A DNA stretch of 64,000 bases, taken from the NCBI RefSeq assembly GCF_003334335.1, contig NZ_QOWQ01000006.1; one strand, 5' to 3'. A program made the position numbers and the translations under genes. Below, piece by piece: positions 9,072-32,931 of this stretch. The notes under the pieces were generated by a model. It had not been told where the DNA came from and did not search any database. It saw only the letters and a program-made list of their open reading frames with translations. The stretch comes from Escherichia coli. GTDB taxonomy: Bacteria; Pseudomonadota; Gammaproteobacteria; Enterobacterales; Enterobacteriaceae. Within the stretch, counting starts at the first letter, position 1. Every line of letters begins with the position of its first letter.

Positions 9072-10112
9072 TCATTTATCGGAAGACGCCTGCCACAGAT
9101 TCAGCTCGCCATCGGCGATATGCTGATCAATCTGCGCCAGCTCCTTGGTGCTAAATGTCAGATTATTCAGCGCCTGCACGTTCTCCTCTAGTTGCTCCGC
9201 GCGGCTGGCACCAATCAATACCGACGTCACGCGATCATCTTTCAGCAACCAGCTTAACGCCATTTGCGCCATTGATTGTCCACGCTGCTGTGCCATTTCA
9301 TTCAATAAGCGCAGGCTGTTGAGGTTGGCTTCGGTAAGCATTTTCGGTGTCAGACCACGAACTTTATTCCCTTCACGATGCATCCGTGAATCTTGCGGAA
9401 TGCCGTTGAGATATTTTCCGGTCAGCAATCCCTGAGCCAGAGGAGTAAAGGCAATACAGCCCACGCCGTTATTTTGCAGGGTATCCAGCAGGCCGCTTTT
9501 ATCCACCCAGCGGTTCAGTAAATTGTACGAAGGTTGATGAATTAACAGCGGAATTTTCCACTCGCGCAGCAACTCGACCATTTTTTGCGTCCGCTCTGGC
9601 GAGTAAGAGGAGATCCCGACATACAGCGCCTTACCGCTTTGTACCGCATGAGCCAGCGCAGAGGCGGTTTCTTCCATCGGCGTATTTTCATCGACGCGAT
9701 GAGAGTAAAAGATATCGACATACTCAAGCCCCATACGCTTCAGGCTTTGGTCGAGGCTGGCGAGCAGGTATTTACGTGAACCGCCAGAGCCGTAAGGGCC
9801 GGGCCACATATCGTAGCCAGCCTTGGTAGAGATAATCAGTTCATCGCGATAAGCGGCAAAATCCTCCCGCAGCAGGCGACCAAAGTTCTCTTCTGCGCTT
9901 CCTGGAGGCGGCCCGTAATTGTTGGCTAAATCAAAGTGCGTAATGCCCAAATCAAACGCTTTACGCAGGATCGCACGCTGTGATTCCAGCGCGTTAACGT
10001 GACCGAAATTGTGCCATAAACCGAGCGATAACGCGGGCAGGCGTAAACCACTTTTTCCGCAATAGCGGTATTGCATCTGCCCGTAACGTTCGGGATTCGC
10101 TAACCAGACCAT
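9072..10112 (-). CDS. yghZ: L-glyceraldehyde 3-phosphate reductase (aldo-keto reductase)
   Basis: 346-aa ORF with aldo-keto reductase family sequence. Confidence 0.9.
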   Translation of the reverse strand: MVWLANPERYGQMQYRYCGKSGLRLPALSLGLWHNFGHVNALESQRAILRKAFDLGITHFDLANNYGPPPGSAEENFGRLLREDFAAYRDELIISTKAGYDMWPGPYGSGGSRKYLLASLDQSLKRMGLEYVDIFYSHRVDENTPMEETASALAHAVQSGKALYVGISSYSPERTQKMVELLREWKIPLLIHQPSYNLLNRWVDKSGLLDTLQNNGVGCIAFTPLAQGLLTGKYLNGIPQDSRMHREGNKVRGLTPKMLTEANLNSLRLLNEMAQQRGQSMAQMALSWLLKDDRVTSVLIGASRAEQLEENVQALNNLTFSTKELAQIDQHIADGELNLWQASSDK

Positions 10113-10268
10113 GACCTCTCCTTTCCACCGTTCAATTTCGAAACAATGTTTCTAGTTTAGCGATTCGCCAGCGCGTATCCCGTAGTCTGGCTCACAGAGT
10201 GACGAAAAACTGGGCAAAAACACGTGCTTATGCTTTGCTTAAAAAAACACCAACTGAGGAGTGCAACG

Positions 10269-11153
10269 ATGCCGCGTTTAACCGCCAAAGATTTCCCACA
10301 AGAGTTGCTGGATTACTATGACTATTACGCTCACGGGAAAATCTCGAAACGTGAGTTCCTCAACCTTGCGGCGAAGTGCGGTAGGCGGGATGACGGCATT
10401 AGCGTTGTTTGATTTGCTCAAGCCAAATTATGCGCTGGCGACTCAGGTAGAGTTTACCGACCCGGAAATTGTTGCTGAGTACATCACGTATCCTTCGCCA
10501 AATGGTCACGGCGAGGTGCGGGGTTATCTGGTGAAGCCCGCAAAGATGAGCGGCAAAACGCCAGCCGTAGTGGTGGTGCATGAGAATCGTGGACTGAATC
10601 CGTATATCGAAGATGTGGCACGGCGAGTGGCGAAGGCGGGGTATATCGCCCTGGCACCTGACGGCTTAAGTTCCGTTGGAGGTTATCCGGGAAATGATGA
10701 TAAAGGTCGTGAGCTGCAACAGCAGGTTGATCCAACAAACTGATGAATGATTTCTTTGCCGCAATTGAGTTTATGCAACGCTATCCGCAAGCGACAGGCA
10801 AAGTGGGTATTACCGGATTTTGCTATGGCGGTGGCGTATCGAACGCGGCGGCTGTCGCGTATCCGGAACTGGCCTGCGCGGTGCCGTTTTATGGTCGTCA
10901 GGCACCCACTGCCGATGTGGCGAAGATTGAAGCGCCTTTACTACTCCACTTCGCGGAACTGGACACCCGAATCAACGAGGGCTGGCCTGCTTACGAGGCG
11001 GCGTTGAAAGCCAATAATAAGGTTTATGAGGCGTATATCTATCCGGGGGTTAATCACGGATTCCATAATGATTCCACGCCCCGTTATGACAAATCTGCCG
11101 CCGATCTTGCCTGGCAAAGGACACTGAAATGGTTCGATAAATATCTCTCCTGA
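10269..11153 (+). pseudogene. yghX: dienelactone-hydrolase-family protein disrupted by two frameshifts
   Basis: Reading frame jumps between three ORFs (10224..10412, 10318..10743, 10743..11153); GAGGA RBS before ATG at 10269; second shift lies in the A-run ccaacaaactgatg near 10740. Confidence 0.65.
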
Positions 11154-23185: not shown

Positions 23186-23878
23186 CTAGTGATAACCACG
23201 CGCGGTCATAAAATCCGTAATCGCTTTTTCTGCATCAACCAACACCTGTTCCAGTGGCTGATTGGCATCGATATCAACCAGTTGTGCACCACCAAAGGTT
23301 AACTGTGGCGTTATGGCAATCTTCCTCGCCAGCGATTCCCGTTTATGGTCGGGTTTACGTGCACAGGCAACTTCAAGGTCAACATTGAGTTTGATGACCA
23401 GATCAGGCTTATGGCTCGCCATCCAGTGAAACGCTTTACGTTCCTGGCTTGCCAGCCATGAGACAAAACGACCACCTTCAACGTTAGGTGGGAACACCGT
23501 ACCATCGTAAGCGCCAGGAATTTGGTCCTGAGGATAACGGTCGGTTAGAACAATTAACCCGCGACGACGACAGGCAAGCATATGACGAAAGCGCAGTAAG
23601 CGACGGGCGACAAACGCTGTAATTACCAGCGCCGGAACTGGTCCAGGCAATTTTTTTGCTGTTTTCACCTGATTTCGTTCAATTGTTTTATGTAAGGATT
23701 TTCCCATCAACGGTAATTTTGTCACTGCACGACCGACATTTCCGGCCTGTTTTCCTAAATGAACTCTTTCGGCAGCACCATATTTTTCGACAACGGTAAT
23801 AAGATGTTCACACACCGTTGACTTGCCTGAACCATCGCTACCAATAACGGCAATTAATGGAGGTGTTATTGACTGCAT
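23186..23878 (-). CDS. yghT: P-loop NTPase, kinase-like (Walker A plus DRYP motif)
   Basis: 230 aa; [11 protein letters not shown]alker [10 protein letters not shown] motif; paralogous to yghS and yghR. Confidence 0.8.
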
Positions 23879-24051: not shown

Positions 24052-24765
24052 GTGAATCAACGTAATATGTCAATAATTAATTCCACGCCAGTGCGTGTTA
24101 TTGCCATTGTAGGATGTGATGGTTCAGGTAAATCGACCCTCACGGCAAGCCTGGTAAATGAACTGGCAGCAAGAATGCCAACAGAACACATTTATCTCGG
24201 GCAATCGTCCGGGCGAATTGGCGAATGGATTTCACAGCTCCCTGTTATTGGCGCACCTTTTGGGCGTTATCTGCGAAGTAAAGCGGCACATGTGCACGAA
24301 AAGCCCTCAACACCGCCTGGCAATATTACTGCACTGGTTATCTATCTGCTTTCCTGCTGGCGGGCGTACAAGTTTCGCAAAATGTTGTGTAAAAGCCAGC
24401 AAGGCTTTCTGCTCATCACCGACCGCTACCCGCAGGTTGAAGTGCCGGGGTTTCGCTTTGATGGCCCGCAATTGGCAAAAACCACGGGCGGTAACGGTTG
24501 GATAAAAATGTTAAGGCAGCGCGAGCTGAAGCTGTACCAATGGATGGCATCTTATTTGCCCGTATTGTTGATTCGTCTTGGCATTGATGAACAAACCGCG
24601 TTTGCGCGTAAACCTGACCACCAACTGGCAGCGTTACAGGAAAAAATCGCCGTTACGCCGCAACTGACATTCAATGGCGCAAAGATCCTTGAACTGGATG
24701 GGCGACACCCCGCCGATGAAATTCTGCAAGCGTCACTACGCGCAATTCACGCCGCGCTTTCCTGA
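24052..24765 (+). CDS. yghS: P-loop NTPase, kinase-like
   Basis: 237 aa; VGCDGSGKSTL Walker A; ITDRYPQVE motif. Confidence 0.8.
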   Translation: MNQRNMSIINSTPVRVIAIVGCDGSGKSTLTASLVNELAARMPTEHIYLGQSSGRIGEWISQLPVIGAPFGRYLRSKAAHVHEKPSTPPGNITALVIYLLSCWRAYKFRKMLCKSQQGFLLITDRYPQVEVPGFRFDGPQLAKTTGGNGWIKMLRQRELKLYQWMASYLPVLLIRLGIDEQTAFARKPDHQLAALQEKIAVTPQLTFNGAKILELDGRHPADEILQASLRAIHAALS

Positions 24766-24796: not shown

Positions 24797-25555
24797 ATGG
24801 ATGCACTACAAACTCAAACTGTTAATAGTACAACCGCGCCGCAGCCCAACTACATTCCGGGGCTGATTGCGGTGGTCGGGTGTGATGGCACCGGTAAATC
24901 CACACTGACCACCGACCTGGTGAAATCGCTGCAACAACACTGGCAAACCGAGCGGCGCTATCTGGGGCTGCTCTCCGGCGAAGACGGCGACAAAATCAAA
25001 CGATTGCCGTTGGTTGGCGTCTGGCTGGAACGGCGACTGGCGGCCAAATCCTCGAAAACCCAAAGCATGAAAACCAAATCTCCGGCGCTATGGGCGGCGG
25101 TGATTATGTACTGCTTCTCGCTGCGAAGAATGGCGAATCTACGCAAGGTTCAGCGACTGGCGCAAAGTGGCGTTCTGGTGGTCAGCGATCGCTTCCCGCA
25201 GGCTGAAATTTCGGGCTTTTATTATGATGGACCGGGGATTGGCGTCGAACGTGCGACCGGGAAAATCAGCATGTTTCTGGCGCAGCGCGAACGGCGTTTA
25301 TACCAACAAATGGCGCAATATCGCCCGGAATTAATTATTCGCCTGGGCATTGATATTGAGACTGCCATCTCCCGCAAGCCTGACCATGACTATGCCGAGC
25401 TGCAGGACAAAATCGGTGTCATGTCGAAGATTGGCTATAACGGCACAAAAATTCTTGAGATTGATTCCAGAGCGCCCTACAGCGAAGTGCTGGAACAGGC
25501 ACAGAAGGCGGTTTCTCTGGTTGCCATCGTTTCTGACCGCCGAAGTTTAACTTAA
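24797..25555 (+). CDS. yghR: P-loop NTPase, kinase-like
   Basis: 252 aa; VGCDGTGKSTL Walker A; VSDRFPQAE motif. Confidence 0.8.
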   Translation: MDALQTQTVNSTTAPQPNYIPGLIAVVGCDGTGKSTLTTDLVKSLQQHWQTERRYLGLLSGEDGDKIKRLPLVGVWLERRLAAKSSKTQSMKTKSPALWAAVIMYCFSLRRMANLRKVQRLAQSGVLVVSDRFPQAEISGFYYDGPGIGVERATGKISMFLAQRERRLYQQMAQYRPELIIRLGIDIETAISRKPDHDYAELQDKIGVMSKIGYNGTKILEIDSRAPYSEVLEQAQKAVSLVAIVSDRRSLT

Positions 25556-25600: not shown

Positions 25601-26950
25601 TTGGCGGGTTTTAACATCAAACATTGGTTTGCAGATGGCGCGTTTCGCACCATTATTCGCAATAGCGCCTGGTTAGGCTCCAGTAATGTCGTGAGCGCCT
25701 TGCTGGGTCTGTTGGCGCTCTCGTGTGCCGGTAAAGGGATGACGCCCGCCATGTTTGGCGTACTGGTGATTGTGCAATCGTACGCCAAGTCGATCAGCGA
25801 TTTTATTAAGTTTCAGACATGGCAACTGGTGGTTCAGTACGGAACACCAGCATTAACCAACAATAATCCGCAGCAATTCCGCAATGTCGTCTCATTTTCC
25901 TTCTCGCTGGATATCGTCAGCGGCGCGGTGGCGATTGTCGGTGGCATTGCCTTACTGCCATTCCTTTCCCATTCATTAGGTCTGGATGACCAAAGTTTTT
26001 GGCTGGCAGCGCTCTATTGCACGCTCATTCCTTCAATGGCTTCCTCCACGCCGACCGGCATTCTGCGTGCGGTAGATCGCTTCGATTTAATTGCTGTACA
26101 GCAGGCGACGAAACCTTTTCTGCGCGCAGCGGGGAGCGTCGTAGCCTGGTATTTTGACTTTGGTTTTGCGGGTTTTGTTATTGCCTGGTACGTGTCGAAT
26201 CTGGTTGGCGGCACCATGTACTGGTGGTTTGCCGCGCGCGAATTACGCCGCCGAAATATCCATAACGCCTTCAAATTGAATCTGTTTGAGTCTGCCCGAT
26301 ACATTAAAGGCGCGTGGAGTTTTGTCTGGTCAACCAACATTGCCCACTCCATCTGGTCGGCGCGTAACTCGTGCAGCACAGTGTTGGTGGGGATCGTGTT
26401 AGGACCCGCTGCCGCCGGGTTATTTAAAATCGCCATGACATTCTTCGACGCCGCCGGAACGCCAGCGGGTTTGCTGGGTAAAAGTTTTTACCCAGAGGTG
26501 ATGCGTTTAGATCCGCGCACCACCAGACCGTGGTTGTTAGGTGTGAAGTCCGGTTTACTGGCGGGCGGAATCGGTATTCTGGTGGCGCTCGCGGTGTTGA
26601 TCGTCGGCAAGCCGCTCATTTCGCTGGTGTTTGGCGTTAAGTATCTCGAAGCGTATGACCTGATTCAGGTGATGCTGGGCGCAATTGTGATTTCGATGCT
26701 GGGCTTCCCTCAGGAGTCATTGCTATTGATGGCGGGAAAACAGCGCGCTTTTCTCGTGGCGCAAACCATCGCCTCAATCGGCTACATCGTATTGCTGTTC
26801 ATGTTCTGTCATCTGTTTGGTGTGCTGGGAGCAGCGTTTGCTTACTTCGGTGGGCAATGTCTGGACGTGGCGCTCTCGTTAATTCCAACCTTAAAGGCAT
26901 TTTTTCAGCGCCATTCCTTGCTTTATAACGCAGCCGGAGAGAAATCCTGA
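25601..26950 (+). CDS. yghQ: MOP-superfamily (Wzx/MurJ-like) polysaccharide/lipid flippase-type membrane protein
   Basis: 449-aa polytopic membrane ORF; TTG start as listed, true start uncertain; stop overlaps next start (TGATG). Confidence 0.75.
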   Translation: MAGFNIKHWFADGAFRTIIRNSAWLGSSNVVSALLGLLALSCAGKGMTPAMFGVLVIVQSYAKSISDFIKFQTWQLVVQYGTPALTNNNPQQFRNVVSFSFSLDIVSGAVAIVGGIALLPFLSHSLGLDDQSFWLAALYCTLIPSMASSTPTGILRAVDRFDLIAVQQATKPFLRAAGSVVAWYFDFGFAGFVIAWYVSNLVGGTMYWWFAARELRRRNIHNAFKLNLFESARYIKGAWSFVWSTNIAHSIWSARNSCSTVLVGIVLGPAAAGLFKIAMTFFDAAGTPAGLLGKSFYPEVMRLDPRTTRPWLLGVKSGLLAGGIGILVALAVLIVGKPLISLVFGVKYLEAYDLIQVMLGAIVISMLGFPQESLLLMAGKQRAFLVAQTIASIGYIVLLFMFCHLFGVLGAAFAYFGGQCLDVALSLIPTLKAFFQRHSLLYNAAGEKS

Positions 26951-27774
26951 TGATGAGAAAATATTTCCCGCTTGAGGCGAGCGAGCGTCTATTTGTTGCG
27001 ATTGAAGAAGATGATGTCGTTGATGCACAGGTTAGTTTGCCGCCGACTATTGCACTAAGTTGTACCACCGAAATCATTCATGATAATTACGCGTTATGCC
27101 TGCAATTCTGGCTCAATGGCGTTGATCGTCAGGAGTTACTGCGTTTAGTTCGCAAACAAGCCAAAGGCGATGAGCTGACTGCTGATGAGCGCAAACAATT
27201 TAAATACATGCGAGCGCGCTACAAGCACCTGCGTTTTGCGCAACGGCTGTATTTAAAGAAGCATCAGGCCGGATTTTTATTCGGCAAAACGACCGTTTTT
27301 CTGGGGCGTTTTCAGGACGGCTTTCGTAACGGTAAGAAAAATATTGTGTCGTATTACGGCAACCTGTTACGGATTTATTTAAGCTCTCCGGTCTGGTCGT
27401 TGGTGAACTATTCATTACGCCATAGCCAGTTAGAAAGCGTAAGCAGTTTTATTGCCTATCGGCAAAAGCAAATGCATACCCTGAAAGAGATTATTGCCAA
27501 ACCGCGACTAACCGGTAGGGAATTTCATGATGTGCGAAAAATCATCAGCCAGCAGGTTTCTTATTACGACACCTTAAGATCGCTTGATCCTGAAAATAAA
27601 GAGGCGTTACAGATATCCCGCTTCCTCGCCGCCATTAATGGCCTGATGGGAGATAAACACGACGACATGGTGGCGGATGATATGGAAAACCGCCAGTCGT
27701 ATGATGCACCGGTGGCGCTGGATAGCGATATTCGTCAGCGCTTAGAGCTGCTGATTTCGCGTTTTCCGCTATAG
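26950..27774 (+). CDS. hypothetical protein, no recognisable domain
   Basis: 274-aa ORF translationally coupled to yghQ; basic/charged, no transmembrane segment or nucleotide-binding motif seen. Confidence 0.55.
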   Translation: MMRKYFPLEASERLFVAIEEDDVVDAQVSLPPTIALSCTTEIIHDNYALCLQFWLNGVDRQELLRLVRKQAKGDELTADERKQFKYMRARYKHLRFAQRLYLKKHQAGFLFGKTTVFLGRFQDGFRNGKKNIVSYYGNLLRIYLSSPVWSLVNYSLRHSQLESVSSFIAYRQKQMHTLKEIIAKPRLTGREFHDVRKIISQQVSYYDTLRSLDPENKEALQISRFLAAINGLMGDKHDDMVADDMENRQSYDAPVALDSDIRQRLELLISRFPL

Positions 27775-27782
27775 CCGGAGCA

Positions 27783-28346
27783 ATGATGTCATCTCGTTTG
27801 ATTATTGCGTTGATTATCATGCTCTTAGCCCCGGGTGTGCAGGCACACAATTTCGTCACTGGCAAAACGGTTACCCCTGTTTATATCCAGGAAGGCGGCG
27901 AGCTGCTTCTGAATAGCGACGACGAAATTCACTACCAAAAGTGGAACAGCACACAATTAGCGGGAAAAGTCCGCATTATTCAGTATATCGCCGGGCGTAA
28001 GTCGGCGAAGAAAAAGAACTCACTGTTAATTAAAGCGGTTGAAGCGGCAAACTTTCCGCAGGATCGTTTTCAGCCCACCACCATTGTGAACACCGATGAT
28101 GCCATCTTTGGTACTGGCTATTTTGTTGTTGGCAAAATCGAAAAAAATAAACGCCGCTATCCGTGGGCGCAATTCGTTATTGACGGCAATGGACAGGGAC
28201 GCGTTGCCTGGCGCTTGCCGGAGCAGAGTTCAACCATTCTGGTGCTGAATAAAGCCGGGCAAATTCAGTGGGCAAAGGACGGCAGCCTGACGCCGGAAGA
28301 GGTAGATCATGTCATTGCGTTGGCGCAGAAACTGATCAATGAATAA
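27783..28346 (+). CDS. YtfJ-family periplasmic protein (signal peptide)
   Basis: 187 aa; N-terminal signal peptide MMSSRLIIALIIMLLAPGVQA; motifs TTIVNTDDAI and WAKDGSLTPEEV resemble E. coli YtfJ as I recall it. Confidence 0.55.
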   Translation: MMSSRLIIALIIMLLAPGVQAHNFVTGKTVTPVYIQEGGELLLNSDDEIHYQKWNSTQLAGKVRIIQYIAGRKSAKKKNSLLIKAVEAANFPQDRFQPTTIVNTDDAIFGTGYFVVGKIEKNKRRYPWAQFVIDGNGQGRVAWRLPEQSSTILVLNKAGQIQWAKDGSLTPEEVDHVIALAQKLINE

Positions 28347-28376
28347 AAAACTCAAAGGATTGAGGGCGTTAGTGAG

Positions 28377-29447
28377 ATGAAGCTGGTTGAACACTACATC
28401 ATGCGTGGTACGCGCCGTCTGGTGCTGATTATCGTCGGTTTTCTGATCTTTATTTTCGCCAGCTACTCCGCACAGCGTTATCTGACCGAAGCGGCAAATG
28501 GGACATTAGCTCTTGATGTTGTGCTGGATATCGTTTTCTACAAAGTACTGATTGCACTGGAGATGTTGTTACCTGTTGGTCTGTATGTGTCAGTTGGCGT
28601 GACGCTAGGGCAGATGTATACCGACTCGGAAATTACCGCTATCTCTGCGGCGGGGGGCAGTCCGGGACGCTTGTACAAAGCCGTTCTTTATCTGGCGATA
28701 CCGCTAAGTATTTTTGTCACCCTTCTGTCGATGTATGGTCGTCCGTGGGCTTATGCGCAGATTTATCAACTGGAGCAGCAGTCGCAGTCGGAGCTGGATG
28801 TTCGCCAGTTGCGGGCAAAGAAATTTAACACTAACGATAACGGACGAATGATCCTTTCGCAGACGGTTGATCAGGATAATAATCGCCTGACTGACGCGCT
28901 GATTTATACTTCTACTGCCAATCGAACCCGCATTTTCCGCGCCCGTTCGGTTGATGTGGTTGACCCATCACCCGAGAAACCGACCGTTATGTTGCACAAC
29001 GGCACTGCCTATCTTATCGATCATCAGGGGCGTGATGACAACGAACAGATCTACCGTAATCTGCAATTACATCTGAATCCGCTGGATCAAAGCCCTAACG
29101 TCAAACGCAAAGCGAAATCGGTCACGGAGCTGGCGCGCTCCGTCTTTCCAGCCGATCATGCCGAACTGCAATGGCGGCAAAGCCGTGGCCTGACCGCATT
29201 GTTGATGGCGCTGCTGGCCATTTCATTAAGTCGGGTAAAACCGCGGCAAGGGCGATTTTCAACGTTATTGCCACTGACGTTGCTGTTTATTGCCATTTTT
29301 TATGGCGGTGACGTCTGCCGTACGCTGGTGGCTAACGGCGCGATTCCCCTCATTCCTGGTTTGTGGTTAGTACCCGGACTCATGCTAATGGGCCTGCTGA
29401 TGCTGGTCGCACGCGACTTCTCTTTGCTGCAGAAATTTTCCCGATGA
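28377..29447 (+). CDS. LptF/LptG-family (YjgP/YjgQ) permease
   Basis: 356 aa; N-terminal transmembrane helices, large periplasmic insert, C-terminal transmembrane helices, as in LptF/LptG. Confidence 0.7.
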   Translation: MKLVEHYIMRGTRRLVLIIVGFLIFIFASYSAQRYLTEAANGTLALDVVLDIVFYKVLIALEMLLPVGLYVSVGVTLGQMYTDSEITAISAAGGSPGRLYKAVLYLAIPLSIFVTLLSMYGRPWAYAQIYQLEQQSQSELDVRQLRAKKFNTNDNGRMILSQTVDQDNNRLTDALIYTSTANRTRIFRARSVDVVDPSPEKPTVMLHNGTAYLIDHQGRDDNEQIYRNLQLHLNPLDQSPNVKRKAKSVTELARSVFPADHAELQWRQSRGLTALLMALLAISLSRVKPRQGRFSTLLPLTLLFIAIFYGGDVCRTLVANGAIPLIPGLWLVPGLMLMGLLMLVARDFSLLQKFSR

Positions 29448-30523
29448 ATGTTTTCAGCCGCTATTTAATCCGTCATCTCTTTCTCGGTTTTGCCGCCGCC
29501 GCAGGGCTATTGCTGCCGCTTTTTACCACCTTCAACCTGATTAACGAACTGGATGATGTCAGCCCGGGCGGTTATCGCTGGACTCAGGCGGTGCTGGTGG
29601 TGCTAATGACCTTACCGCGCACACTGGTCGAACTTTCGCCATTTATCGCCTTATTGGGAGGGATTGTCGGCCTGGGGCAGTTATCGAAAAACAGTGAGCT
29701 TACCGCCATTCGCAGCATGGGGTTTTCTATCTTCCGTATTGCACTGGTGGCGCTGGTTGCAGGGATATTGTGGACTGTTTCGTTAGGCGCGATAGATGAG
29801 TGGGTAGCGTCGCCATTACAGCAACAGGCGTTGCAAATCAAATCGACCGCCACCGCGTTGGGGGAGGACGATGACATTACCGGCAATATGCTGTGGGCCA
29901 GGCGTGGTAATGAATTTGTGACGGTGAAATCGCTGAACGAGCAGGGCCAGCCGGTGGGCGTGGAGATTTTTCATTATCGCGACGATCTCTCGCTCGAATC
30001 CTACATTTATGCACGCAGTGCCACCATTGAAGACGACAAAACGTGGATCCTGCATGGTGTGAATCATAAAAAATGGCTGAATGGCAAAGAAACGCTGGAA
30101 ACATTAGATAATCTTGCCTGGCAATCGGCCTTCACCAGTATGGATCTTGAAGAGTTATCAATGCCGGGCAATACTTTTTCTGTCCGTCAGCTTAATCATT
30201 ACATCCATTATTTGCAGGAAACCGGGCAACCCAGCAGCGAATACCGCCTTGCACTGTGGGAAAAACTGGGGCAACCCATCCTGACCCTGGCGATGATTTT
30301 GCTGGCTGTGCCGTTTACCTTTAGCGCCCCGCGCTCGCCAGGGATGGGTAGCCGTCTCGCTGTAGGTGTCATCGTTGGCTTACTCACCTGGATCAGCTAT
30401 CAAATCATGGTCAATCTGGGATTGCTATTTGCGTTGAGCGCACCTGTTACCGCGCTCGGTTTACCGATAGCGTTTGTGCTGGTGGCGTTGAGCCTGGTGT
30501 ATTGGTATGACAGACAACATTAA
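29444..30523 (+). CDS. LptF/LptG-family (YjgP/YjgQ) permease, second paralog
   Basis: ORF 29363..30523; start placed at MNVFSRYLIRHLF (ATG 29444 overlaps upstream stop, ATGA); same topology as previous gene. Confidence 0.7.
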   Translation: MNVFSRYLIRHLFLGFAAAAGLLLPLFTTFNLINELDDVSPGGYRWTQAVLVVLMTLPRTLVELSPFIALLGGIVGLGQLSKNSELTAIRSMGFSIFRIALVALVAGILWTVSLGAIDEWVASPLQQQALQIKSTATALGEDDDITGNMLWARRGNEFVTVKSLNEQGQPVGVEIFHYRDDLSLESYIYARSATIEDDKTWILHGVNHKKWLNGKETLETLDNLAWQSAFTSMDLEELSMPGNTFSVRQLNHYIHYLQETGQPSSEYRLALWEKLGQPILTLAMILLAVPFTFSAPRSPGMGSRLAVGVIVGLLTWISYQIMVNLGLLFALSAPVTALGLPIAFVLVALSLVYWYDRQH

Positions 30524-30524
30524 A

Positions 30525-30551
30525 CCCGCCGTGGCGCAACACCACGGCGGG
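30525..30551. terminator. GC-rich hairpin between convergent operons (probable bidirectional terminator)
   Basis: cccgccgtgg-cgcaacac-ccacggcggg lies between the LptG-like stop (30523) and the reconstructed aminotransferase stop (30558). Confidence 0.5.
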
Positions 30552-30557
30552 CTCACA

Positions 30558-31737
30558 TTACTGCTTCAGAGTAGCAAATGCCTGAATGATGGCATCGATT
30601 TGCTCACGACTGTGAGCAGCGTTTACGCTACAGCGCAGCAGCGTGATGCCTGCAGGCGCGGCAGGTGGCAGGTGGCAGGATAAGATTCACATAAACGCCC
30701 AGCGAAATAAGCTCGCGCCAGATGCGTAAACCGTCCTCTTTCGAACCGATTATTACCGGCACTACCGGGCTAATATGTGAACTTAACTCATAACCCAGTT
30801 TTTGCAGACCGTCATACAGATGGTTGGCATTATCCATCAGCTTTTGCCGCAGCTCTGGTTGTGTGGCAATAGTTCTTAACGACGAGCGCACGGTCGCAAT
30901 GCAGGACGGAGAAGGAGAGGCGGTAAAAATATACGGGCGGCTGCCGTAGCGCAGCACTTCCATCGCTTCCGAACCGACAGCAAAACCGCCAATCGAGGCC
31001 AGACTTTTACTGAAGGTGCCAACGATAATATCCACATCATCTTCAACGCCGACAGCTTCAGCCAGTCCGCGCCCCGTTGCGCCTAACACGCCAAACGAAT
31101 GCGCTTCATCGACAATCAAATAACCACCGAGACGACGTTTGATATCAACAATTTCCGCTAACGGCGCAACGTCACCGAGCATGCTGTAGATACCCTCAAC
31201 GATGATAATCGCCTCTTTCGCCCGTTCACCGAGGCGAACCATGCGCCGTTCCAGATCTTTAGCATCGTTATGGCGGAAACGAATAATTTCCGCGCCACCG
31301 AGAGAACAGGCGTCATAAATACTGGCGTGGCTGTCGGCATCCAGTAACACCACGGCGTTATGGTCGGCAAGTGCGCTGATGACGCCTAAATTAGCGGTAT
31401 AACCGGTTGAAAAAACGATAGCGGTAGGGCGATTGAAAAACTCGGCAATCTCTTTCTCTAACGCCAGGTGCGGCGCATAACTGCCGTTTGCCATACGAGA
31501 ACCGGTGGTGCCGGTACCTTGGGCCGCTAACGCGGCCTGACCTTCGCTGATGGCATCATGATTAAAGGTTAAACCGAGATAATTATTGGTCCCGGCCAGA
31601 ATCACTTTTTTATTGCCGATCCGGCCTTCGGTGGCGGAATACACTTCATCAATACAGGTGCCAAACGGTGTTAACCCGTTGTCACTAAATTGCAGTCGCT
31701 CGCCAGCAAGGCGCGCATATTTATCGTATAGCCCCAT
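30558..31737 (-). CDS. alpha-oxoamine synthase (serine palmitoyltransferase/BioF/KBL family), frameshifted near the 3' end; longest intact frame is 30628..31737
   Basis: PLP-lysine motif GTFSKSLASIGGF; listed ORF ends ...ILPPATCRACRHHAAAL; a 7-bp tandem duplication at about 30661-30674 shifts frame; removing one copy gives ...PPAAPAGITLLRCSVNAAHSREQIDAIIQAFATLKQ; ATG overlaps ACP stop (TAATG). Confidence 0.75.
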
Positions 31738-31985
31738 TATTTATTCTCCAGCCATGGAAGTAGAGTTTCCATTAATTGCGCAGGGGTTTTGACATCCAGC
31801 AGAATATTAATAGGAATGGAAATATCGAATCTGTCTTCCAGCATCATTAAGAGATCCATCACTTTGATCGACTCCAGGCCAAGATCGTTGACGAGATCGC
31901 TGTCGGGCTTAATTTCCACACCGTTTTCGACCAAATCCTGTAAACAGGAAAGGATGTAATCCATTACTATTTCACGATTTACCAT
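31737..31985 (-). CDS. acyl carrier protein
   Basis: 82-aa acidic ORF with phosphopantetheine attachment motif DLGLESIK. Confidence 0.8.
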   Translation of the reverse strand: MVNREIVMDYILSCLQDLVENGVEIKPDSDLVNDLGLESIKVMDLLMMLEDRFDISIPINILLDVKTPAQLMETLLPWLENK

Positions 31986-32016
31986 AGAAACGTTAACACA
32001 CCTTTAAACAAGACAA

Positions 32017-32931
32017 TCAAAATAGCCCGTTGCGTAATGCGTGTTCCAGGCTAATCCCGGGAAACCAATTAATATCTTCAGAAATACGGTTATTACTTGC
32101 CGACCAGTCGGCGTGGGTTAATTCACGAATTTTCGAGCGGGTCAGCATAGGTTCTTTACCTGCCAGGCGACTCAACGCGGTACTGATATCCGCAAGGCCG
32201 GTGAGTACCGGCAGAGGAATGCCAACCATTCGCACGGAACCGCAACGGGCGTCGGCGGCAAGTTGCTGTACGCGTTGCCAGTCATAGCCGCCGGCGACGC
32301 CATCGCATAATTCATAGGTTTGCGTCTGTATAGTTTCGGCGCTTAACCACTGACCCACTGCTTGCGCGAAATCGGTGACGTGCAGAAAAGAGAGCTGTGT
32401 ATCTGGCGCACCAAGTCGTGGCAGCAGGCCGCGCAGCATCCAGTCAAACAGCGGTTTTAACTCTTTATCGCCGGGACCATACACGGCTGTCGGGCGAAAA
32501 ACGCCCAGCGTAATTTCGTCCGCCATTGCTGCCAGTCGTTGCTCGGCGACGTATTTGGATTTTGCATACCAGGAGAGCTCGGGATGGCGCGCCGCCAGCG
32601 AAGAGATAAACAGAAAACGTTGGCAAAAGCCGCTCTCTTTTGCTGCTTGCATCAGGCGCAGGCTGCCGTCAACGTTACAGCGGGTGAAAATCTCTTCTTT
32701 GTGCCCGCGCACTTGCCCGGCGCAATGGACCACTACGCTGGCTCCGGCAACCAGCTCGCTAAGTGAATGAGTATCTTCCAGCGAACCGCGCACCCAGGTG
32801 AGATTATCATTGACGTGAGCGCGGGCAGTACGCGTCAATGCGCGAACGTGAAAGCCGCGGGCGAGCAGGTTATCGATAATATATTTACCGATAAACCCGG
32901 TAGCGCCCGTCACCGCGACAGTTTGATTCAT
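32017..32931 (-). CDS. NAD(P)-dependent epimerase/dehydratase-family oxidoreductase (candidate keto-reductase)
   Basis: 304 aa; Rossmann motif VTGATGFIG; catalytic YAKSK (YxxxK); ATG overlaps upstream stop. Confidence 0.75.
   Translation of the reverse strand: MNQTVAVTGATGFIGKYIIDNLLARGFHVRALTRTARAHVNDNLTWVRGSLEDTHSLSELVAGASVVVHCAGQVRGHKEEIFTRCNVDGSLRLMQAAKESGFCQRFLFISSLAARHPELSWYAKSKYVAEQRLAAMADEITLGVFRPTAVYGPGDKELKPLFDWMLRGLLPRLGAPDTQLSFLHVTDFAQAVGQWLSAETIQTQTYELCDGVAGGYDWQRVQQLAADARCGSVRMVGIPLPVLTGLADISTALSRLAGKEPMLTRSKIRELTHADWSASNNRISEDINWFPGISLEHALRNGLF

Follow-up and report, generated by a model that had tools for sequence, protein, structure and literature searches.

A predicted CHAD-like protein and a second YtfJ as candidate accessory parts of the Escherichia coli sphingolipid island

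What are two genes without an assigned role doing in the middle of an operon for transport? The question arises from a 64,000-nucleotide stretch of Escherichia coli DNA (assembly GCF_003334335.1, contig NZ_QOWQ01000006.1; hereafter the window, whose positions are used throughout). Here orf274 ('Ybl138'; 26950-27774, plus strand), encoding a protein of 274 residues, and a gene for a secreted relative of YtfJ that we call ytfJ2 (27783-28346, plus strand; RefSeq places its start at the second ATG, 27786) follow yghQ (25601-26950, plus strand), the gene of a full-length, 449-residue flippase. A first-pass annotation, made from the letters of the DNA, had proposed a functional partnership between ORF274 and YghQ, and had pictured the YtfJ-like protein as a lipid shuttle. 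This ‘transport operon’, we find, belongs to the E. coli sphingolipid (ceramide) island and makes up one of its arms. The reality of the two genes, the operon structure, the folds, the conserved motifs, the gene order and the island context are what we observe. At a rough probability of 0.42, the reading that we favor is that orf274 and ytfJ2 are accessory parts of this island, with ORF274 acting as a cytoplasmic adaptor for a phosphate head group between lipid phosphorylation and flipping by YghQ.

Both open reading frames (ORFs) are real genes and not chance ORFs, because they are widespread in E. coli, because ORF274 has homologues in other orders, and because both products give AlphaFold2 models. 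The 1.4 kb in question is E. coli chromosome; strains LH13-b and JCM 5491 match it at 100% identity and BL21(DE3) at 99.9%, and the orf274-ytfJ2 segment is present at a coverage of at least 80% in 4115 of 5426 complete E. coli genomes. Homologues of ORF274 occur throughout the Enterobacterales, and full-length homologues are found in other orders at identities down to about 20-30%. The ‘TGATG overlap’ between yghQ and orf274 that was reported earlier is plain in the sequence, where the ATG of orf274 and the TGA stop of yghQ have one base in common (junction ...TCCTGATGATG...). The two genes lie in a plus-strand operon of seven, yghS-yghR-yghQ-orf274-ytfJ2-lptF2-lptG2, whose members overlap or are separated by gaps of 45 nt or less.

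The surroundings of this operon identify the pathway. The genes by which a proteobacterial locus for sphingolipid synthesis and export is recognized, namely spt, acpR, cerR, aasR and an N-acyltransferase gene together with lptF2 and lptG2, are all in the window, in agreement with the published BL21 and UTI89 loci. The sphingolipid island had escaped the earlier annotation. Two paralogues of lipopolysaccharide (LPS) export permease genes close the operon: lptF2 (28377-29447, plus strand; TIGR04407, 318 bits) is a paralogue of lptF, and lptG2 (29444-30523, plus strand, RefSeq coordinates; TIGR04408, 308 bits), a paralogue of lptG, overlaps it by 4 nt as ATGA. A G+C-rich hairpin with a 16-bp stem (30521-30555) then separates lptG2 from the convergent spt and is probably a bidirectional terminator. 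With the exception of this strong hairpin, a promoter and terminator scan returned sites no commoner than in shuffled sequence.

On the minus strand, running towards the hairpin, are aasR (32928-34616; acyl-AcpR synthetase, a fatty acyl-AMP ligase, by RefSeq), cerR, also called epi (32017-32931; an NAD(P)-dependent reductase of the ceramide pathway, by RefSeq and family scan), acpR (31737-31985; a specialized acyl carrier protein for sphingolipid synthesis, by RefSeq and PMC9386255), and spt (30558-31737; serine palmitoyltransferase, NF047599, 553 bits), which is frame-shifted in the window so that its ORF ends at 30628. Beyond them, yghO (35026-36168, plus strand) encodes a homologue of the acyl-CoA N-acyltransferase Aca, the bacterial ceramide synthase (RefSeq; PMC9386255, Fig. 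9 legend). By the RefSeq annotation of the identical region and our family scans, the whole island reads pitB, yghT on the minus strand, yghS through lptG2 on the plus strand, the hairpin, the convergent aasR-cerR-acpR-spt, and then yghO; pitB, a phosphate transporter gene, lies directly upstream of the island in E. coli. The island itself, its ceramide genes and LptF2G2 are already published: Spt, AcpR and AasR of E. coli BL21 produce 3-oxosphinganine, with yghO as the N-acyltransferase homologue (PMC9386255), and the UTI89 locus is depicted in a 2026 preprint (bioRxiv 10.64898/2026.04.12.717747).

In other genomes, too, orf274 has constant partners. A scan with an alignment of 36 ORF274 sequences, taking one genome per species, yielded 79 loci, which were then searched with the E. 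coli island proteins. A yghQ homologue lies directly 5' of the ORF274 homologue on the same strand in 64 of these loci, drawn from the Enterobacterales, Xanthomonadales, Sphingomonadales and one Acetobacteraceae genome. The yghQ stop and orf274 start overlap in 49 of the 64 (33 of them as ATGA), and a gap of no more than 23 nt separates them in the rest, which bears out the proposed partnership well beyond E. coli. YghQ is assigned to the Polysacc_synt-type flippases of the multidrug/oligosaccharidyl-lipid/polysaccharide (MOP) superfamily by a weak NCBIfam match, and by PF01943 on a homologue (locus L003). The conserved order is kinases, then yghQ, then orf274, the kinases being relatives of the products of yghR, yghS and yghT at the upstream end of the E. 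coli island.

This order holds to differing degrees among lineages. Of the 46 Enterobacterales loci, 41 have yghQ immediately upstream (several of the remaining five are cut off at the edge of the locus or hold an orphan copy), 37 have three kinase paralogues, and 39 have spt. Among the five Xanthomonadales loci, four have yghQ immediately upstream of orf274 and all five have spt; Luteibacter, Rhodanobacter and Dyella have a single same-strand run of aasR-cerR-acpR-spt-yghQ-orf274, with three kinase genes just upstream. The Sphingomonadales have yghQ immediately upstream together with at least one kinase in 16 of 18 loci, and at least two kinases in 15 of 18. Three Acetobacteraceae genomes have a kinase gene directly 5' of orf274, and one shows the complete arrangement of two kinases followed by yghQ and orf274. 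One further ORF274 homologue adjoins aasR on a metagenome contig. Two exceptional contexts were also seen. In Acetobacter cibinongensis (locus L076, 6433-14163), a kinase/CHAD-like gene pair has for neighbors a GT4 and a GT2 glycosyltransferase, a second kinase, a MOP flippase of divergent sequence and a 503-residue protein that matches no family, and the module adjoins a type I-F CRISPR cas1. Pluralibacter gergoviae and a related metagenome-assembled genome (loci L020 and L026, approximately 10001-10800) have an orphan ORF274 homologue of 56-59% identity whose neighbors encode an amidohydrolase, a LysR regulator and transporters of the BCCT and MFS types; genes for a flippase or kinase, and spt, are absent from its vicinity.

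These differences in context raise another explanation, that the module makes and flips some other component of the envelope, for instance a glycan that is phosphorylated and linked to undecaprenyl, or another glycolipid, and that its link to sphingolipid genes is loose or secondary in gammaproteobacteria. The classical substrates of MOP flippases are linked to undecaprenyl-pyrophosphate, spt lies over 10 kb away from the module in the Sphingomonadales, GT4, GT2 and a second MOP flippase flank it in A. cibinongensis, and the Pluralibacter copy stands in an unrelated context. The A. cibinongensis setting hints at a glycosylated product of the module in acetic acid bacteria. Yet spt shares the locus in the great majority of Enterobacterales and in every Xanthomonadales case, and in the latter directly precedes yghQ-orf274; the neighbor of aasR on the metagenome contig likewise speaks for a sphingolipid connection, and the Caulobacter sphingolipid locus also has a candidate Polysacc_synt-type flippase, CC_1166. 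The family is moreover small and distinct, since an exhaustive profile search of 1.84 billion representatives returned no more than 303 clusters at 50% identity. Nearly all of the members that have a named source belong to groups in which sphingolipids, or genes for making them, are known (Sphingomonadales, Acetobacteraceae, Zymomonas and gammaproteobacteria with spt). With this distribution, we regard an unrelated envelope product as quite unlikely, and return to ORF274 as a component of sphingolipid handling.

What kind of protein, then, would be coupled so tightly to a flippase? The first-pass annotation had found no recognizable motif in ORF274, and this stands insofar as Pfam-A and NCBIfam give no significant match to the E. 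coli protein; structure and profile comparisons, by contrast, point to a divergent CHAD-like domain. The AlphaFold2 model, built from 33 sequences, is all-helical with 11 helices and of high confidence (predicted local distance difference test score, pLDDT, 92.3; predicted template-modeling score, pTM, 0.89), and it shows the two four-helix bundles with pseudo-twofold symmetry that characterize CHAD domains. Foldseek against AFDB50 returns full-length matches labeled ‘CHAD domain-containing protein’ from Sphingomonas, Zymomonas, Acetobacter, Gluconobacter, Komagataeibacter and Commensalibacter, at template-modeling (TM) scores above 0.9 and identities of 26-42%. A profile of 80 ORF274 sequences reaches RcCHAD (6qv5) in the PDB at E 0.0017, while a narrower profile of close homologues finds no match among PDB sequences. 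In a Pfam scan of 80 family members, CHAD is the sole recurrent family (20 of 80 at E<=0.1, and 3 of 80 at E<=0.001).

The residues that the family keeps are consistent with this assignment. In the profile alignment with 6qv5, K85-x2-R88-x3-K92-x2-R95 and H193-x2-R196-K197 of ORF274 pair with the H-x2-R-x3-R motifs of CHAD, which crystallography and mutagenesis have identified as polyphosphate contacts (Lorenzo-Orts et al., PMC6537752). Within the family, each of these aligned positions is either invariant or basic in at least 95% of members, with lysine in place of the first histidine in the N-terminal half. Four residues, R88, D123, H193 and R196, never vary across the family, and at 12 positions at least 80% of members have a basic residue. 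ORF274 is basic (isoelectric point, pI, 9.27) and has no hydrophobic segment, and should therefore be a soluble cytoplasmic protein. The comparison with CHAD domains (PF05235; RcCHAD 6qv5, CtCHAD 3e0s/6qvA, Streptomyces PptA 6rn5 and the C-terminal domain of E. coli YgiF) thus shows likeness in basic character, in a (H/K)-x2-R-x3-(R/K) motif in each half, and in a stand-alone protein encoded beside kinases of the thymidylate kinase superfamily. ORF274 differs in having invariants of its own, D123 and an NG-x-MG-x2-HD block at 230-238, and in its company: canonical CHAD domains have PPX, PPK1, PPK2 or TTM enzymes as partners, whereas ORF274 is coupled to a MOP flippase in sphingolipid loci. The remote-homology and structure checks that the first-pass annotation had recommended gave a CHAD-like outcome, and not an unrelated family that would break the partnership with YghQ. 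A CHAD-like identity gives that partnership a chemical meaning, namely the binding of phosphate or polyphosphate.

The family also occurs in multiplied and fused forms. Some Luteibacter genomes have two tandem ORF274-family genes (locus L043, 10001-11800; locus L050, 9152-10816), and a 564-residue protein (P0122) is a head-to-tail fusion of two copies, which suggests that ORF274 may work as a dimer, or that its ligand may be an extended one. Two proteins of about 980 residues (P0226 and P0235; locus L086, 8001-10931) join an N-terminal hydrophobic segment and an APH/choline-kinase-type domain to two ORF274-type repeats; no sphingolipid genes were seen in the L086 neighborhood. Because of this fusion to an APH-type kinase in another lineage, the ORF274-type domain is linked to phosphotransferases of two unrelated folds.

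The kinases of the island are the other half of the argument. Three paralogous genes stand before yghQ: yghT (23186-23878, minus strand; named by RefSeq), which is transcribed away from yghS and has weak matches to deoxythymidine monophosphate (dTMP) kinase below cutoff; yghS (24052-24765, plus strand; RefSeq), the first gene of the operon; and yghR (24797-25555, plus strand; ORF and RefSeq). Their products are 35-40% identical to one another and belong to the thymidylate kinase superfamily (family profile against PDB thymidylate kinases, E 3e-7), distinct from the housekeeping Tmk. All three keep the Walker A motif, DR(Y/F)PQ and the RKPDH lid. At approximately residues 45-100, after the P-loop helix and at what would be the dTMP-binding region of thymidylate kinases, all three also have a conserved insertion of about 55 residues (YLGxxSGxxGxxIxxLPxxG...), which may be a lipid- or membrane-facing element. 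Neither a glycosyltransferase nor any other head-group transferase is encoded in the E. coli island by its ORF list and RefSeq annotation, and these kinases are thus the sole candidates there for adding a head group to ceramide.

Kinases of this superfamily have been found beside a CHAD protein before. The archaeal polyphosphate kinase PPK3 is formed by a pair of dTMP-kinase-like paralogues whose genes share an operon with those of PPX, SixA and a CHAD protein, and bacterial dTMP-kinase paralogues beside such genes have been argued to be polyphosphate kinases as well (2026 JBC paper, PMC12995831). The E. coli island resembles the Sulfolobus acidocaldarius operon (saci_2017-2021; PMC12995831) in placing adjacent, non-Tmk paralogues of the dTMP kinase superfamily and a CHAD-type protein in one cluster; unlike it, the island has neither PPX nor SixA, and adds a flippase, LptF2G2 and genes for ceramide synthesis. 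It is conceivable, then, that ORF274 binds inorganic polyphosphate, with YghR, YghS and YghT as PPK3-like or polyphosphate-dependent kinases, and that free polyphosphate near the membrane serves as phosphate donor, energy source or sensor of phosphate status, and not as a lipid head group.

The CHAD fold with its conserved polyphosphate-contact motifs, the PPK3 operon with the same pairing of kinase paralogues and CHAD protein, the separateness of the three kinases from Tmk, and the position of pitB just upstream of the island all suit a role for free polyphosphate. However, E. coli already has PPK1 and PPX, and the island provides no PPX or SixA gene of its own. The catalytic motifs are intact in all of the kinase paralogues, unlike the degenerate regulatory subunit of PPK3 (rPPK3), and the family profile matches 2plr/5h70, the structural homologue of the catalytic PPK3 subunit (cPPK3), weakly (E 0.0095) and less well than canonical thymidylate kinases. 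Free polyphosphate would also leave the near-universal translational coupling of orf274 to a flippase for lipid-linked substrates unexplained. We therefore think this explanation unlikely, and prefer a phosphorylated lipid as the object of ORF274.

The best studied anionic-sphingolipid locus, that of Caulobacter crescentus (CC_1152-CC_1168: spt, acpR, cerR, aasR, bcerS, cpgABC, lptF2, lptG2, lptC2 and CC_1166), helps to place these parts in a pathway. The five ceramide-synthesis genes are common to this locus and the E. coli island, as are the lptF2 and lptG2 paralogues and a Polysacc_synt-type flippase, and export of an anionic lipid would be expected of both. In Caulobacter, LptF2 and LptG2 are required once anionic sphingolipid is made, and they bind and use the housekeeping LptB (bioRxiv 10.64898/2026.04.12.717747). 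The head-group genes are wholly different: Caulobacter has the diacylglycerol (DAG)-kinase-type CpgB, CpgA and CpgC, a HIT protein and a glycerophosphotransferase-like protein, where E. coli has three dTMP-kinase-like proteins and a CHAD-like one. We considered whether CC_1167 or CC_1157 might be a counterpart of ORF274 and rejected both, one being glycerophosphotransferase-like and the other the HIT protein; the ceramide kinase CpgB, a DAG-kinase/LCB5-type enzyme, was likewise rejected as a relative of YghR, YghS and YghT.

The mechanism that we favor would run as follows. Translational coupling would have ORF274 made in fixed proportion with YghQ. YghS, YghR and YghT would phosphorylate ceramide to a pyro- or oligophosphate form, and the basic, CHAD-like surface of ORF274 would bind the phosphate-rich head group and present the anionic lipid to YghQ for flipping. 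ORF274 might alternatively bind a polyphosphate donor used by the three kinases, still presenting the lipid to YghQ. Once the lipid is flipped, LptF2G2 would extract it for the outer membrane, probably with the housekeeping LptB as its source of power, while YtfJ2, redox-inactive in the periplasm, would handle the anionic head group or aid the hand-over from YghQ to LptF2G2, in Enterobacterales only. A route from ceramide-phosphate through ORF274/YghQ to LptB2F2G2 is proposed because the kinases are the sole head-group candidates, because MOP flippases typically move pyrophosphate-linked lipids, and because Caulobacter needs LptF2G2 when its sphingolipid is anionic. What we infer is the ligand, the succession of these steps and any physical contact among the proteins. 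An extended form of the same scheme, in which the final product in E. coli and other sphingolipid-encoding proteobacteria is a ceramide-anchored oligo- or polyphosphate surface lipid, its chain built by YghS, YghR and YghT as enzymes related in principle to PPK3, held by ORF274 much as canonical CHAD holds polyphosphate, flipped by YghQ, received by YtfJ2 and exported by LptB2F2G2, strikes us as very improbable.

The periplasmic side of this scheme depends on YtfJ2, whose kinship had been correctly read by the first-pass annotation. The 187-residue protein scores 212.1 bits against TIGR01626 (YtfJ; curated cutoff 151.1) over residues 2-185 and 2e-59 against PF09695, and is 54% identical to the housekeeping YtfJ encoded elsewhere on the K-12 chromosome. 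Its N-terminus, MMSSRLIIALIIMLLAPGVQA|HNF, is the classical Sec signal peptide that had been predicted: its n-region is positive, its core is hydrophobic and its cleavage motif is V-Q-A; the most hydrophobic 19-residue Kyte-Doolittle window starts at residue 1 (mean 2.03), and no lipobox cysteine is present. The AlphaFold2 model (pLDDT 81) has a thioredoxin-like fold, shared with the periplasmic proteins DsbE/CcmG, TlpA, ResA and Sco, and it has the N-terminal beta-hairpin typical of the TlpA/ResA type. The mature protein (pI 9.27) contains no cysteine and hence no CXXC, so YtfJ2 is not a thiol-disulfide oxidoreductase or peroxiredoxin, and a thiol-oxidoreductase role is ruled out. At the CXXC position, in the loop between beta3 and alpha1, there is instead a cluster of invariant residues, the basic AGRxSAK(K)KN (residues 70-79, window 27990-28019). 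This loop and the His-Asn-Phe at the mature start (residues 22-24, window 27846-27854) are invariant or nearly so among 29 YtfJ members, K-12 YtfJ included. Judging from these residues, the conserved N-terminal histidine of YtfJ could bind metal and the basic loop an anion.

Within the YtfJ/HI0045 family (PF09695, TIGR01626), YtfJ2 is thus a second copy above the curated cutoff that is dedicated to the sphingolipid island, and confined to Enterobacterales: ytfJ2 lies at most 1.5 kb downstream of orf274 in 44 of 46 loci of that order and in none outside it. In rearranged islands it keeps the company of yghQ-orf274 and not that of lptF2G2. The periplasmic component differs from that of Caulobacter, which has LptC2, reported to be restricted to Caulobacter (bioRxiv 10.64898/2026.04.12.717747), and no YtfJ; Enterobacterales have YtfJ2 and no LptC2. 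No function for any YtfJ family member was found in the literature that we searched. Our best guess, held with low confidence and drawn from the conserved residues, is that YtfJ2 might bind the anionic head group in the periplasm.

These features bear on a further explanation, in which ORF274 serves YghQ as a helical scaffold or assembly chaperone and binds no ligand, its CHAD shape reflecting only ancestry, and YtfJ2 is the periplasmic lipid shuttle that the first-pass annotation had imagined, taking the part of LptC2 and moving sphingolipid across the periplasm or from YghQ to LptF2G2. Translational coupling would suit a stoichiometric partner, the confinement of LptC2 to Caulobacter leaves Enterobacterales without a dedicated periplasmic component, and ytfJ2, whose product has a signal peptide, sits between orf274 and lptF2 in E. 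coli. But the invariant positions of ORF274 are basic and histidine residues that match the ligand contacts of CHAD, and not a hydrophobic interface; rearrangement separates ytfJ2 from lptF2G2 and not from yghQ-orf274; and K-12 retains its 54%-identical YtfJ despite having no sphingolipid island. Nor does the model of YtfJ2 show the beta-jellyroll with a hydrophobic groove of Lpt-type periplasmic carriers (LptC/LptA). The shuttle idea finds no support here, with no resemblance to known lipid carriers, and we consider the scaffold and shuttle together highly improbable, leaving ORF274 as a phosphate-head-group adaptor the reading to be weighed.

Several observations count against that reading. 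The homology of ORF274 to CHAD is argued from a predicted fold and marginal profile scores: the Pfam CHAD model (PF05235) does not match the E. coli protein even at E<=10, and hhalign of the 80-sequence profile against the short-type E. coli CHAD protein YgiF gives no meaningful alignment. For these reasons we call ORF274 a member of a divergent CHAD-like family and not an ordinary CHAD protein, and claim no sequence-level homology to YgiF. The PPK3 parallel is imperfect, with no gene for PPX, PPK1 or PPK2 in the island, catalytic motifs kept in all three E. coli paralogues as opposed to the split into catalytic and degenerate regulatory subunits in PPK3, and the weak 2plr/5h70 match noted above. 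In the Sphingomonadales there is no spt within 10 kb of the kinase-flippase-CHAD-like module, and the Acetobacter module sits among glycosyltransferases. The Caulobacter locus has no CHAD-like gene and a ceramide kinase of the DAG-kinase type, so that the role proposed for ORF274 would not be universal. The loop of YtfJ2 that would form its putative anion site is low in model confidence (pLDDT approximately 61 at residues 71-80). Finally, we found no description of the sphingolipid product of the E. coli island, or of how it crosses the inner membrane, in the literature searched, so that the phosphorylated head group is a deduction from gene content.

The island has suffered damage in particular strains, including the one analyzed here. 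A 7-bp tandem duplication (GGCAGGT, plus strand) at 30660-30666 in spt costs the gene its frame approximately 100 nt before the normal stop at 30558, so that the product ends early, at 30628, with 369 residues and an aberrant tail in place of the normal 390. None of the 4085 complete E. coli genomes that contain that stretch has the duplication, which either inactivates or alters serine palmitoyltransferase in this strain specifically or is an error in the sequence. In K-12 MG1655 (3130146-3131340, compared with window 26670-35100), an IS5 element (IS5LO) replaces everything from the 3' end of yghQ through aasR: the yghQ 3' end, orf274, ytfJ2, lptF2, lptG2, spt, acpR, cerR and aasR are lost, and yghT, yghS, yghR, a 355-residue YghQ and yghO are left. 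The genes from orf274 to aasR have no K-12 names because IS5 takes their place in that strain, and papers on K-12 yghQ, which concern the IS5-truncated gene, were of no use here. Further insertion-sequence damage is seen in E. coli LH13-b (NZ_CP100525.1, 729744-731917), where an IS1-like element splits the orf274-ytfJ2 match in two.

About three quarters of complete E. coli genomes carry the island, including strain B derivatives (BL21) and the uropathogenic UTI89, and published work on it has so far centered on ceramide synthesis and LptF2G2. We found no paper tying ORF274, YtfJ2 or YghR, YghS and YghT to sphingolipids, or CHAD domains to lipids, in a search limited to part of the journals. 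To the published picture we add the placing of ORF274 as CHAD-like, a kinase-flippase-CHAD-like module that is conserved among sphingolipid-encoding proteobacteria, the likeness of this module to PPK3, and a fold for YtfJ, an uncharacterized family for which the hypotheses are now sharply fewer. The analysis yields a testable prediction, a phosphate-rich head group, with defined residues to mutate, and a four-gene module of kinases, flippase and CHAD-like protein to seek in Sphingomonadales, Acetobacteraceae and Xanthomonadales. A ceramide-anchored oligo- or polyphosphate, if it exists, would add a class to the surface lipids known from bacteria and give the CHAD fold a biological role that it was not known to have. 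Since anionic surface sphingolipids are the target of colistin in Caulobacter and support its survival without LPS (bioRxiv 10.64898/2026.04.12.717747), the lipid chemistry encoded by this E. coli island could bear on envelope biology and on antibiotic action.

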